A stretch of DNA of 41,842 nt. Origin: a plasmid. This document shows positions 23,505-28,857 of the stretch, one piece after another. Position numbers and translations under genes: made by a program. The stretch is from the sequence record NZ_CP114581.1; one strand, written 5' to 3'. Positions within the stretch are counted from its first letter, which is position 1. The number at the start of each line of letters is the position of its first letter. Below the pieces are notes generated by a model. That model searched no databases, was not told the origin of the DNA, and saw nothing but the letters and a program-made list of their open reading frames with translations.

Positions 23505-23588
23505 CCCCCAAGAACCGACTGTAGGTCAACCGCCTAACAAAAGTAAAATGCTAGCATTTTTACGGTTGTTAGGATATCCTGCATCGCA
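23505..23588. promoter_or_regulatory. oriT-like palindromic region, copy 1 (upstream of mobC)
   Basis: ~83 bp containing the perfect palindrome AAAATGCTAGCATTTT inside a longer imperfect IR (CCTAACAAAAGT...ACGGTTGTTAGG). A near-identical inverted copy is at 28776..28857. The position upstream of mobC-mobA is canonical for oriT. Confidence 0.5.
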
Positions 23589-23845
23589 CTAAAACTTATC
23601 TTACCTCTGAGCTTAGTTTTTATCTATCTCAAAAAGAAAAAAGACGGCAAACATAGCGGTGAATTCCTTTTGTCTGCGACCATTCAACACTAAAGTCGCT
23701 TTATATTCTGTGTTTATAGGGTTCGCTTCGCTCACGGCTTAATAGTGCGGAAGGGGTTCGAGAATATTTAAAAGCCCTCCCTTTTATCGGCAAATCAGAT
23801 TTAGGTGTTTTAATTGGCTTTGGTGGGTTGCCTGACATGTGCCAT

Positions 23846-23876
23846 AGGCACATAAAAAAGGGGCATTAAGCCCCTT
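23846..23876 (-). terminator. rho-independent terminator (minus strand)
   Basis: The minus strand reads AAGGGGCTTAATGCCCCTTTTTTAT: a 7-bp GC-rich stem, 4-nt loop and T6 run, downstream of the 24088..24635 operon. Confidence 0.55.
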
Positions 23877-23887
23877 GAGATTTTAAA

Positions 23888-24022
23888 TTAATGTTTTAAC
23901 AATTCACTTTCTTTACGTATTTGTTGAAGAAAAAAAGGTAATTCTTTGACTGTCATGATTGGAAAAGTGGTTCTTTTTCCCTTTGCAAAATCTTTGGCTG
24001 CTGCTATCATTTTATCCGACAT
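23888..24022 (-). CDS. small ORF (44 aa) with strong RBS, not in the ORF track
   Basis: ATG at 24022 preceded by AAGGAA. Product MSDKMIAAAKDFAKGKRTTFPIMTVKELPFFLQQIRKESELLKH. Directly followed by the terminator. Confidence 0.25.
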   Translation of the reverse strand: MSDKMIAAAKDFAKGKRTTFPIMTVKELPFFLQQIRKESELLKH

Positions 24023-24087
24023 AATAAATTCCTTTGTAAGTTTTTTGTGTCAGAGTCTAGGGGGGGGCAACCCTCTAGACTCAACCT

Positions 24088-24318
24088 TTAAATCACTGAA
24101 CAAATATGTTTATTTCTTATTCTCCGTATAAACTCTACGGCTTCCTGTTCCTCCTCTGAATTTTGTTTAAATGATGTTTTTGTTACGTTCGCTTCACTGT
24201 CGAACTCGACAACCTGATCTAACTCGCCATTTTTTGAAATGTGGTAAGTGTAAAATCCGTTGTACTCGAAAATACTAATAATTTTATATTCAGGTGTATT
24301 CATTAAATATATTTCCAA
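24088..24318 (-). CDS. hypothetical protein (76 aa)
   Basis: ORF in an operon with the 110-aa upstream gene. The true start may be the internal Met (MNTPEYKI). Confidence 0.35.
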   Translation of the reverse strand: MEIYLMNTPEYKIISIFEYNGFYTYHISKNGELDQVVEFDSEANVTKTSFKQNSEEEQEAVEFIRRIRNKHICSVI

Positions 24319-24635
24319 TCGACAGTTAAATAATCTTGTTTGAAGTAATTATTTAATTTTGTTATCAGGTCTAACGTATTATTAACTATGGTAGGTTGTG
24401 ATTCACAGAAAATCACTTGGTTGTGAACATTGTAAGCAGACATAGTAAATTTAACAGTAACAGGCTCTAAGAATAAATCATATACAACAATTGCACTAAC
24501 TCGCGCATTTTTAAAAATTTTAAATTTTTCTTTTACTTCATTTAATGATTGAGCAACTTCATAAAAATTTTTCAATTCAATATTTTTTTCAAAATCATCA
24601 TTTGTTACGTTTAAAATCACATGAAACAATTTCAT
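24303..24635 (-). CDS. hypothetical protein (110 aa)
   Basis: First gene downstream of duplicated promoter cassette copy 1. RBS TAGGAG. Confidence 0.45.
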   Translation of the reverse strand: MKLFHVILNVTNDDFEKNIELKNFYEVAQSLNEVKEKFKIFKNARVSAIVVYDLFLEPVTVKFTMSAYNVHNQVIFCESQPTIVNNTLDLITKLNNYFKQDYLTVDWKYI

Positions 24636-24647
24636 TATTCACTCCTA

Positions 24648-24727
24648 CCCTTTGAGGGCTTTGGAAGAAAGGGAACCATTCCGCTTTCAATAAAATCATT
24701 ATAGTACCTCATAAGGTACTTATCAAG
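24648..24727 (-). promoter_or_regulatory. duplicated promoter/leader cassette, copy 1
   Basis: 80 bp near-identical to 26460..26539. The minus strand reads TTGATA-17 bp (AGTACCTTATGAGGTAC, dyad)-TATAAT, then a leader with CCCTTT...AAAGGG. Confidence 0.55.
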
Positions 24728-24729
24728 TT

Positions 24730-26459: not shown

Positions 26460-26539
26460 CCCTGTGAGGGCTTTGGAAGAAAGGGAACCATTCCGCTTTC
26501 AATAAAATCATTATAGTACCTCATAAGGTACTTATCAAG
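26460..26539 (-). promoter_or_regulatory. duplicated promoter/leader cassette, copy 2
   Basis: Same 80-bp cassette as 24648..24727, here immediately upstream of the J-domain gene. Confidence 0.55.
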
Positions 26540-26929
26540 CATTTTTTCCAAAAATTGCTCTTTTTATTTTAATGCGAATATATCTAAATTATTGTATTAC
26601 AAGGAAATTTAAGGGAAGACTGAGATGTAATGATTTATTTAAATCAAACGCGCTGTAATCGATTCTAAGCGACGATCATTTATATTTGGTTAAATGGATA
26701 GGCTATACGGGGAAAAACCACCCTGAATGGCTTACAGCTCATTTTTGATGATTATATTGCTGCTAGTGATGATCTTGTGGAGAAAATAAAGATCAATAAC
26801 CCGTTAAAACCGCAACGCTCGCCGCAAGATGGAAATTTATTTTCCATCGAGGAAGCGTAATATCTGTGATGTTAATGTTGGCACATACTCCCAAAACTCA
26901 AATCAAAATATGTTTAGACGAAGTGTTAG

Positions 26930-26938
26930 TTATCCACA
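26930..26938 (+). promoter_or_regulatory. DnaA box (TTATCCACA) in the oriV region
   Basis: Perfect 9-mer consensus. It is followed by AT-rich CTTATTAA-type repeats (26945..26995) and then the iterons. Confidence 0.45.
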
Positions 26939-27044
26939 AAAAATTGCCATAATTCTTATTAAAAGACTTATTAATTCTTATTAAAACTTATTAAGGAAAA
27001 AAACACCTCACAATACATTGAATTTAAACAATTATTTTTAGATG

Positions 27045-27371
27045 TGTGTGTGTAAATCCCGTGTCCGTGTGTGTAAATCCCGTGTCAGTGTGTGTAAATC
27101 CCGAATGAGGTGTGTGTAAATCCCGAATCGCTGTTTGAAATTTGTACAGTAATTATTTCGTTTTTTGTGTGTAAATCCCGATAATCAAGAGTAAATCAAC
27201 TCTTGATTATGTTCCTATTTTTTTTAGTCAAAATAGTCTTGACTGTCGTGTGTAAATCCCGATATATTGTGTGCAAATCCCGATGTTTTTTGTGTTGATA
27301 TTGTAACTACTGTGTGTGTAAATCCCGATATTTCGTGATCATCGTATGAATTTATTTGTGTGTGAATCCCG
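27045..27371 (+). repeat. iteron array (9 copies of GTGTGTAAATCCCG-type repeat), oriV
   Basis: Four tandem copies at 21-22 bp spacing (27045..27125), then dispersed copies at about 27167, 27249, 27269 (variant), 27311 and 27357 (variant). A small IR AATCAAGAG..CTCTTGATT lies at 27183..27210. The array is directly upstream of rep. Confidence 0.8.
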
Positions 27372-27398
27372 ATAAAAGAAAGGTAAGTAATACAAAAG

Positions 27399-28355
27399 AT
27401 GAAAACGTTAAGACCTAAAAAATACAAGGAAGAAGAATTTTTTATCGCTGATGAAGTTGAAATTTCATCTTTTCGGGATGAGTTAGCCAGTATGGAACAC
27501 CCTTTTTTTGCTTTAAAAGGGGGGGATGATAAAGTTAGAGAATACAGAAATAATAATATTTCTGTATTAGTTAGACCCGCAACTGGAATTGGATTAGCTA
27601 CTGTATTTGATAAAGATATTTGGATTTATGCTATTTCTAAATTGCAACAAGCGATTTTTGAAGGAAAACCGATTAGTCGAACTATCGCTTTTACTCCTTA
27701 TGAATTTTTTGTTACGACGAATCGTGATAAAGGGGGAAGGTCTTATGATGAATTAAAAAAAGCCCTTGAGCGTTTAGCTGGTACTCGTATTCAAACCAAT
27801 ATTGTATATTCATCAGAAAAACAAGAAACAGAAAACTTTGGTTTAATTGATAAATGGAGAATATTAGAAGAAAAAAAAGGACGATTAGATATTGGCATGG
27901 TAGAAGTGACTTTACCTGATTGGCTTTATCAGGGCATTACAAAAAATAAAGTATTAAAAATTAATTCTGATTATTTTCGCATAAGAAAAGCAATAGATCG
28001 ACGTATTTATGAAATAGCAAGAAAGCATTGTGGATATCAAAAATCATTTTCATTATCAATAGAATTATTGCATTTAAAATCTGGCGCTACGTCAAACAAA
28101 AGAGAGTTTAAACGTTCAATTAAAAAACTTAGTTTAGTAAATGATTTGCCTGATTATGAGGTTTTATTAGATGCCGAAAATGATTGTGTGACATTTACTA
28201 ATCGTCATTTTGATGAGTCTCTCGAAAAGAAAATGAATCAATTAGCTAAAAATAAAAATATGATAGAGGAGGTTGTGAGTAATGGTAAATTACCTAAAAA
28301 ACTTCAAAAAAAGGTAGCTACAATTGCAGATAAAATAAGTAAAGAAAAAAGATAG
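27399..28355 (+). CDS. repA: iteron-binding replication initiator protein (Rep)
   Basis: 318 aa, basic, immediately downstream of the iterons. The size and arrangement are typical of theta-type plasmid Rep initiators. Confidence 0.65.
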   Translation: MKTLRPKKYKEEEFFIADEVEISSFRDELASMEHPFFALKGGDDKVREYRNNNISVLVRPATGIGLATVFDKDIWIYAISKLQQAIFEGKPISRTIAFTPYEFFVTTNRDKGGRSYDELKKALERLAGTRIQTNIVYSSEKQETENFGLIDKWRILEEKKGRLDIGMVEVTLPDWLYQGITKNKVLKINSDYFRIRKAIDRRIYEIARKHCGYQKSFSLSIELLHLKSGATSNKREFKRSIKKLSLVNDLPDYEVLLDAENDCVTFTNRHFDESLEKKMNQLAKNKNMIEEVVSNGKLPKKLQKKVATIADKISKEKR

Positions 28356-28364
28356 GGTGTTAAT

Positions 28365-28769
28365 ATGGCTAAAATATATCAATTCCCTCAAGGGAAAGAA
28401 AAAAAAGAAATACAGGCTAAATTAAAAAAATCTCGATCTGTAAAGATAAAAAAAGATATTAAGAAATCATCCTTATCCCATATACTTTCTATGCTGTTTT
28501 TGGGGATTCGTTATTTCTTAGGGGTAACGCTAGATGTACTTTTATTGATGGTAGTCTCTATCATCTCTGTTTTCCGTTATTTGATTATTCCACTCGGTAT
28601 TTTTGCATTGATATTATTCTATTACAACAATGAGAAAATGTGGAATGTAGAAATGACGGTGACAATGGCGTTAATGGTTTCTAGTCTTATCAACCCCGAA
28701 GTTTTACAAGATATACAGCCATTTCAAACATTATTTGGTGTAAAGTCACCACAATCTGAGGCTAAGTAA
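28365..28769 (+). CDS. small membrane protein (134 aa)
   Basis: Lys-rich N-terminus followed by 2-3 TM helices. Starts 10 nt after the rep stop. Confidence 0.4.
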   Translation: MAKIYQFPQGKEKKEIQAKLKKSRSVKIKKDIKKSSLSHILSMLFLGIRYFLGVTLDVLLLMVVSIISVFRYLIIPLGIFALILFYYNNEKMWNVEMTVTMALMVSSLINPEVLQDIQPFQTLFGVKSPQSEAK

Positions 28770-28775
28770 TTATAA

Positions 28776-28857
28776 TGCGATGCAGGATAGCCTAACAACC
28801 GTAAAAATGCTAGCATTTTACTTTTGTTAGGCGGTTGACCTACAGTCGGTTCTTGGG
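28776..28857. promoter_or_regulatory. oriT-like palindromic region, copy 2 (inverted)
   Basis: Reverse complement of 23505..23588 with about 2 mismatches. Contains AAAATGCTAGCATTTT. Followed by RBS GGAGGG and ATG 28865. Confidence 0.5.

Follow-up and report, generated by a model that had tools for sequence, protein, structure and literature searches.

Inverted arms around the replication module of a Proteus/Providencia-type plasmid as probable alpha and beta transfer origins of an R6K/IncX-type backbone

We analyzed a 41,842-nt stretch of plasmid DNA (record NZ_CP114581.1; below, the window), in which a long inverted repeat brackets the replication module. One arm of the repeat abuts ddp1 (taxA), encoding a relaxosome accessory protein and followed by the relaxase gene taxC (ddp2), the other arm abuts ddp3 (taxD), and all these genes are directed outward from the bracket (coordinates are collected in Table 1). 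Each arm is 99 nt long, they are 94% complementary, and the spacer between them is 5175 nt; the runner-up inverted repeat within 22000–30500 has 36 nt and 72%. The repeat is real and far above chance. In the arm cores (23507–23588 and 28776–28857), position-by-position comparison yields one mismatch in 82 nt (23574, A vs. C), slightly better than about two in 83 counted in an earlier note made from the sequence alone, whose count and coordinates thus essentially hold. The perfect palindrome AAAATGCTAGCATTTT, also reported there within a longer imperfect inverted repeat, is indeed nested in a longer hairpin with the outer stem (G)CCTAACAA/TTGTTAGG(C).

Both arms align with the experimentally defined origins of transfer (oriT) of plasmid R6K, oriT-alpha and oriT-beta, as well as with the alpha and beta copies of IncX1 plasmids. 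Two elements are invariant throughout the alignment, the 20-mer CAAGAACCGACTGTAGGTCA and the nick region CTATCCTGCATCG (with the cleavage point, CTATCCTG|CATCG), while the hairpin between them varies from 41 to 54 nt, with a constant distance of 7 nt from the end of its stem to the G|C of ATCCTG|C. The nick-region consensus of the MOBP (RP4) family is YATCCTG|Y following an inverted repeat, and in the window CTATCCTGC is found 7 nt past the stem in both arms, together with a relaxase of the MOBP type; a literature search with the consensus string returned irrelevant papers only. Folding of single-stranded DNA gives –9.4 kcal/mol (z –2.6) for alpha and –11.5 kcal/mol (z –3.4) for beta. As judged from its sequence, each arm is a complete oriT module, comprised of a conserved 20-bp putative protein-binding block, a hairpin of 41–43 nt and a MOBP nick sequence.

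The outer stem covaries among lineages. It is GCCTAACAA/TTGTTAGGC in the lineage to which the window belongs, GGCAAC/GTTGCC in IncX8 and Xenorhabdus, GGGCAAACG/CGTTTGCCC in IncX1, R6K, Rosenbergiella and Apirhabdus, and GCCCAACAA/TTGTTGGGC in one Providencia beta copy. The inner palindrome also shifts by compensatory pairs (GCTAGC, GGTACC, GACGTC). The change to GCCCAACAA/TTGTTGGGC in the Providencia relative, compensatory and specific to beta, shows that selection acts on the beta hairpin. Moreover, the 20-mer has no synonymous variation across lineages whose proteins share only 35–50% identity, as expected of a cis-acting DNA element rather than coding sequence.

Taken with the synteny described below, these features make it very probable that the arms are the alpha and beta conjugative transfer origins of an R6K/IncX-type transfer backbone, with nicking predicted at both. 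The earlier suggestion that the first copy is the oriT of the adjoining accessory-protein and relaxase operon is supported by the R6K alignment, the MOBP-type motif and the covarying hairpin.

Table 1. Features of the window and their counterparts in R6K (NZ_LT827129.1, IncX2); protein identities are from BLASTP.
Feature	Coordinates	Strand	Description and evidence	R6K counterpart	Identity to R6K
oriT-alpha arm	23496..23594	+	predicted nicked strand, +	22703-22813
alpha: start of ddp1	23497-23508		reverse-complemented ATG and Shine-Dalgarno sequence
alpha: invariant 20-mer	23509-23528		CAAGAACCGACTGTAGGTCA
alpha: hairpin	23533-23573		inner palindrome 23545-23560
alpha: nick motif	23576-23582	+	ATCCTG|C; predicted nick between 23581 and 23582
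oriT-beta arm	28770..28868	-	predicted nicked strand, -	28050-28159
beta: nick motif	28782-28788	-	predicted nick between 28783 and 28782
beta: hairpin	28791-28831		palindrome 28804-28819
beta: invariant 20-mer	28836-28855		CAAGAACCGACTGTAGGTCA
beta: start of ddp3	28856-28867		Shine-Dalgarno sequence and ATG
taxC/ddp2	21779..22942	-	MobP1-family relaxase, 387 amino acids (aa); NF041450, 3.5e-117, 391 bits, full length; PF03432	21002-22159 (-)	51%
ddp1/taxA	22951..23499	-	relaxosome accessory protein, 182 aa; NF041451 (DDP1), 2.8e-44	22162-22707 (-)	35%
ddp3/taxD	28865..29230	+	121 aa, DUF2726; NF041452, 1.4e-45; PF10881	28155-28508 (+)	38%
ribbon-helix-helix gene and parA				following ddp3 (-)	43% and 55%
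J-domain gene, orf185, small open reading frames, XRE gene, orf110, orf76	24088..26447	-	backbone genes transcribed toward oriT-alpha	small open reading frames and J-domain gene (-), between the alpha arm and pi	J-domain 63%, orf185 29%, XRE 36%
vegetative origin	26931..27371	+	DnaA box, AT-rich stretch, nine iterons (TGTGTAAATCCCG)
DnaA box	26931-26939		TTATCCACA
iterons	27049-27371		nine
rep	27399..28355	+	replication initiator, RPA family; PF10134, 6e-77	pi, 26606-27523 (+)
bis-like gene (orf134)	28365..28769	+	134 aa, between rep and oriT-beta; same position as R6K bis	27527-27982 (+)	25% (E 8e-13)
coupling protein and VirB1-B11-type mating-pair apparatus	7552..19482	-	VirB11/B10/B9/B8/B6/B5 Pfam domains; annotation of an identical record
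type IV coupling protein (VirD4-type)	7552-9384	-	Pfam T4SS-DNA_transf, 4.4e-142

The relaxase, Ddp1 and Ddp3 match the curated NCBIfam profiles MobP1, DDP1 and DDP3, all three above the cut-offs. Alignment to the DDP1 profile, as to that of DDP3, starts only with residue 11 in the open reading frames (ORFs) starting from upstream TTG codons, as chosen in a mechanical ORF list, and the RefSeq starts are ATG codons ten codons downstream of the TTG, at 23499 (ddp1, minus strand) and 28865 (ddp3). As in addition a GGAGG-like Shine-Dalgarno sequence precedes this ATG in every lineage aligned, the ATG codons should be the real starts, and the common N-terminus MTYSRFLGG, noticed earlier in both translations, is then an ORF-caller artefact; the DNA encoding it is the invariant 20-mer. 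What stands of that observation is that the repeat, on sequence evidence, supplies the 5' untranslated region, the ribosome-binding site and the start codon of both genes, not a shared coding sequence. Ddp1 is 49% identical to its IncX8 counterpart. For Ddp3, no sequence relative was found in the Protein Data Bank, a homologue search gave close relatives only, and the AlphaFold model based on a shallow alignment has a mean predicted local distance difference test score (pLDDT) of 59.

The position of the arm ends is also compatible with a regulatory role. Only alpha might work as oriT, beta being retained chiefly as a duplicated regulatory leader (operator, 5' untranslated region and ribosome-binding site) that places ddp3 under the Ddp1/TaxA-dependent control of ddp1-taxC. 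Each arm stops exactly at the start codon of the outward-facing gene, and Ddp1 has a weak NikA-like ribbon-helix-helix match, typical of autoregulating accessory proteins; moreover, in IncX8-type plasmids ddp3 belongs to the ddp1-mobP1 operon with one oriT, and beta could preserve co-expression after ddp3 had moved. However, an arm acting as operator alone could do without the nick region, whereas the beta nick motif and hairpin are intact in every lineage examined, one of them with the beta-specific compensatory double change, and both R6K copies are described as functional in the passage of PMC2262945 citing Avila et al. (1996). We consider a leader without oriT function quite unlikely, the regulatory and oriT roles themselves being compatible with each other.

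Small relatives provide comparative support for the function of both copies as oriT. A 3,997-bp Providencia plasmid (NZ_CP151779.1, positions 553–1197), whose host strain also harbors a 41-kb plasmid carrying the complete system, has one arm (91% identical) and a ddp1 homologue (81%), but no relaxase, and the 7,475-bp NZ_CP116947.1 is similar, with an oriT and a ddp1 homologue and no relaxase. On the other side of the bracket, NZ_CP029129.1 (9473–11304), a 12.4-kb IS26 deletion derivative, keeps rep, the bis-like gene, oriT-beta and ddp3. Typed as "non-mobilizable", these small plasmids and the deletion derivative, given their sequence content, are probably mobilizable in trans.

Several observations weigh against the assignment of both arms as transfer origins with a shared leader function. 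The nick position is placed by the MOBP consensus and identity with the R6K oriT. MOB-suite calls most related records "mobilizable", not conjugative, and oriTfinder predicted no oriT for one 40.9-kb member of the lineage (PMC12383092), the latter most likely reflecting the limits of the oriTfinder database. IncX8-type relatives manage with a single oriT, which means that transfer does not require two copies. Finally, a sigma-70 scan found no promoter in either arm facing ddp1 or ddp3; hence, of the earlier proposal of shared operators, compatibility with the arm ends holds, but co-regulation is hypothetical. The same scan identified an inward-facing TTGTTA-18-TATAAT in beta, not shared with alpha, and the number of sigma-70 promoters in the region is just that expected from shuffled sequence.

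The near-identity of the arms, and the concerted evolution of alpha and beta in each plasmid, could also be expected if the inverted oriTs were substrates of relaxase-mediated site-specific recombination that inverts the 5.2-kb replicon segment, as the earlier note had predicted, so that the segment would act as a DNA switch; some relaxases, among them TrwC of R388, do recombine two oriT copies (PMC3264647). The known oriT–oriT recombination, however, has direct repeats of oriT as substrates, and relaxases in general do not perform it (PMC3264647). In the window, the predicted nick sites lie on opposite strands. In consensus assemblies, which represent the majority isomer only, the synthetic junction of the inverted isomer is present as one piece in none of the 27 related records, its halves matching separately, and for the equivalent IncX1 junction no record reaches at least 80% coverage among 2,421 partial matches. 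Both orientations were thus not found in these assemblies, the bracket ORFs contain no recombinase domain, and gene order and orientation within the bracket agree between the window, IncX1 and R6K, deeply divergent though these are. A switch of this kind is highly improbable, and the prediction is not borne out, although relaxase-driven inversion at a low frequency is possible. In Rosenbergiella sp. YN46, the bracket forms a contig of its own (6,112 bp) ending with both inverted oriT arms (22–92, plus strand; 6038–6108, minus strand); this is the expected behavior of an assembler at an inverted repeat and not evidence of inversion.

A long inverted repeat enclosing a discrete 5.2-kb segment might also have arisen as the terminal inverted repeats of an element moved by transposition or flipped by an invertase, or as a scar left by a cointegrate of two plasmids. 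Yet the arms are homologous to a characterized oriT, there is no transposase, invertase or resolvase within the bracket (23595–28769), which constitutes syntenic backbone in all relatives, and blocks of identity with relatives cross the arms instead of stopping there. The plasmid has one relaxase, one type IV secretion system (T4SS) and one iteron replicon, giving no indication of the cointegrate history considered earlier. We regard this origin of the repeat as extremely improbable and retain the interpretation of the arms as oriT-alpha and oriT-beta.

The bracket indeed contains everything listed for it in the earlier note, that is, a DnaA box, iterons, rep, the J-domain operon and the XRE gene, the two latter supported by the Pfam DnaJ and HTH domains. 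The iteron scan produced 11 matches against 0.97 expected. All nine iterons are confined to the vegetative origin, with no lone iteron beside either arm, and thus nothing points to auxiliary origins with iterons at the arms, of the kind known from R6K. In BLASTP comparison, the RPA initiator had no match to the R6K, IncX1 and IncX8 initiators; R6K pi and the IncX1, IncX8 and Rosenbergiella initiators occupying the same slot are of the Rep_3 family, the Rosenbergiella contig having the Rep_3 version within the bracket. The RPA version in the same bracket is also present in Providencia rustigianii DSM 4541 and P. alcalifaciens plasmids. As the bis-like gene (25–27% identical to Bis of R6K and IncX1, E about 8e-13) has been kept along with the J-domain operon, the initiator swap is smaller than the bracket, being confined to rep and the iterons. 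The combination defining an IncX replicon, a pi/RepX initiator of the Rep_3 family and the gamma origin plus alpha and beta origins, was not found in the window, and MOB-suite assigns no replicon type. With an RPA-type Rep, no pi match and no iteron near the arms, the plasmid resembles IncX plasmids in the genes for transfer and in the backbone, without being an IncX replicon.

Other elements of the bracket were also noted. A 105-nt direct repeat (92%) is located at 24631–24735 and 26443–26547, with orf110 downstream of one copy and the J-domain gene downstream of the other, each copy having a near-consensus minus-strand sigma-70 promoter (TTGATA-17-TATAAT, 11 of 12 positions); judging by sequence, this resembles a promoter/leader that was duplicated and would drive two operons. 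Just inside oriT-alpha lies a conserved non-coding block (23667–23896), 78% identical in P. rustigianii (2476–2708). Related sequence is seen in the Providencia stuartii plasmid pPS2 (9407–9470 and 11631–11712), where it belongs to a perfect inverted repeat of about 155 nt (9291–9444 / 11675–11827) around a toxin–antitoxin pair. Folds of 23640–23880, calculated for a structured single-strand initiation element inside alpha, are not significant (z –1.5 and –0.9 for the two strands), and there are no Rfam matches within the bracket.

If both arms are active, the following scheme of transfer can be proposed. By homology, the TaxC/MobP1 relaxase with Ddp1/TaxA, and probably Ddp3/TaxD, would assemble a relaxosome on either arm and nick it. 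As the arms are inverted, the predicted nick sites are on opposite strands, and either plasmid strand could be the transferred one. The hairpin-then-nick order is on the plus strand in alpha, so that the plus strand would leave 5' to 3' into the bracket, and on the minus strand in beta, where the nick also points into the bracket; in the recipient, the replicon segment would thus arrive ahead of all else, with the tax and T4SS genes coming last. From alpha, the incoming plus strand would be the template of the J-domain operon, as the genes of the left half are on the minus strand, and from beta, the incoming minus strand would be the template of the bis-like gene and rep, encoded on the plus strand. 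Entry of the strand that serves as template for the nearest genes is an orientation rule reported for leading regions generally (PMC11541004). Further, since each arm reaches the Shine-Dalgarno sequence and ATG, the same protein-bound DNA would be the 5' leader of both outward-facing genes, which probably couples expression of ddp1 and ddp3 to relaxosome occupancy, and a second oriT attached to the replicon would keep rep-containing deletion derivatives mobilizable in trans.

One may go further and suggest that the bracket is a deliberately two-sided leading region, in which the entering strand templates the adjacent half of the replicon segment. The bracket has survived the exchange of the pi initiator for one from the unrelated RPA family. 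We consider this suggestion speculative and rather unlikely to hold; if true, it would mean that the second oriT has been selected for replicon establishment or mobilization rather than for pi-dependent firing of alpha and beta origins, and the classical "alpha and beta origins" of R6K might be relaxosome phenomena.

Outside the bracket, the window contains a complete VirB1–B11 apparatus (VirB4 being 69% identical to that of IncX1), a coupling protein and a TopB topoisomerase. A RepL-like protein (20338–20748, minus strand; PF05732, 2.4e-23) is encoded between the T4SS and a RelE/antitoxin pair, in the position of a NusG-like gene in R6K and IncX1. The presence of a hok/sok module is indicated by a sok antisense RNA (35147–35306; Rfam RF01794, 104.7 bits). 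The GC content rises to 46–52% from about 36 kb onward (36000–41842), and this segment, with a class A beta-lactamase gene (36122–36982) and a 1054-aa ORF, is presumably a Tn3-family transposon.

The repeat region is 99.6–100% identical to Proteus mirabilis plasmids of 36–71 kb and 92–95% identical to plasmids of Providencia alcalifaciens and P. rettgeri. For related records, PLSDB gives a MOBP relaxase and no replicon type, and members of the lineage are listed as "Inc not assigned" (PMC5554438). Relatedness to the P. alcalifaciens sequence OU659129 is mosaic: the block of rep, the bis-like gene, oriT-beta and ddp3 (26928–29234) is 98.0% identical, and the flanks less so (taxC-ddp1, 92.7%; parA, 95.8%), with block boundaries not coinciding with the nick sites. 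Exchange of cassettes via oriT at the nick sites was considered and rejected, the identity blocks with two Providencia relatives running through the arms. The IncX-type oriT of Enterobacterales is also seen on short contigs labeled as a Clostridia metagenome-assembled genome (MAG), Streptomyces capoamus and a Halothece MAG, likely due to contamination or mis-binning.

The assignment would fill a gap in annotation by giving an oriT to a common lineage of Proteus and Providencia plasmids with TEM and other resistance genes, at present listed as "Inc not assigned", typed in MOB-suite as "mobilizable" or "non-mobilizable", and devoid of an oriT according to oriTfinder. It would be useful for mobility prediction in plasmids of Morganellaceae and for risk assessment, as co-resident small plasmids and deletion derivatives typed "non-mobilizable" carry an oriT and probably can be mobilized. 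Moreover, the design with two oriTs, regarded as exclusive to IncX replicons, seems to travel with the transfer backbone and to persist after an initiator swap, while understanding of the conjugation mechanism is unchanged.

The closest parallel is R6K, the source of the ddp1/ddp2/ddp3 nomenclature. Its gene order is colinear with that of the window almost to the coordinate and in the same orientations: T4SS, taxC/mobP1, ddp1/taxA, oriT-alpha, J-domain operon, iterons, rep, bis-like gene, oriT-beta, ddp3/taxD, parA. In both plasmids, inverted oriT copies, about 5.2–5.3 kb apart, flank the replication region with the iterons and rep between them; ddp1-taxC adjoins one of the arms, and ddp3 the other, downstream of rep-bis; the 20-mer and the nick region are identical, with equal spacing of hairpin and nick motif; and the same order and orientation is seen for the J-domain operon and the XRE, ribbon-helix-helix and ParA genes. 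This agrees with the two functional oriTs of R6K, both described, in passages of PMC2262945 and PMC10123127 citing Avila, Nunez & de la Cruz (1996), as able to assemble relaxosomes, and with conjugative IncX plasmids in general, where two oriTs lie in long inverted repeats near taxC and near rep/ddp3 (PMC3402527, PMC3332091). On the contrary, the initiators differ (RPA, PF10134, vs. pi of Rep_3), the iterons are unrelated and none stands alone beside the window arms, the hairpin sequence is lineage-specific, the proteins are 25–63% identical, the host range of the window lineage is Morganellaceae, and a RepL-like gene with a toxin–antitoxin pair takes the place of the NusG-like gene. The arrangement, called unusual in the earlier note, is the same as the textbook R6K/IncX one.

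IncX1 plasmids (pOLA52, pECTm80, R485, p53_D) share the layout ddp3(taxD)-bis-rep ... ddp1(taxA)-ddp2(taxC) (PMC3332091, PMC3402527), and their arm is 76–77% identical to that of the window, with the same inner palindrome AATGCTAGCATT, but they have a pi-type replicon, a bracket of about 7.6–7.8 kb and the outer stem GGGCAAACG/CGTTTGCCC. IncX8/pHI4320-like plasmids, such as pPS2 (NZ_CP017056.1), have a homologous oriT (82–83% identical), a relaxase of the same family (58% identity), the J-domain operon and a bis-like gene after rep. Unlike the window, they have a Rep_3 initiator and a single oriT, with ddp3 directly downstream of the relaxase gene, so that in pPS2 (6916–9104) ddp1-mobP1-ddp3 form one operon. 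Judging from this comparison of sequences, the beta arm may have originated as an additional oriT leader acquired by a relocated ddp3, and the pPS2 layout may be the state before this duplication, or a secondary loss.

More distant systems share single features. In pMET1 and HPI-ECOR31, two inverted nick sites have been proposed, in a passage of PMC2262945, to permit transfer of either strand, but there the nick sites are inside one short inverted repeat and belong to a CloDF13-like Mob system. The oriT of RP4/IncP likewise has an inverted repeat a few nucleotides 5' of the YATCCTG|Y nick site, but it is a single oriT, with no detectable similarity outside the nick core and with a relaxase of a different subfamily. 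As in the window, a ribbon-helix-helix-type accessory gene lies beside the RP4 oriT, with transcription of the relaxase operon leading away from this site. Among all these systems, the Proteus/Providencia plasmid is a further example of the known R6K design, with no new mechanism.

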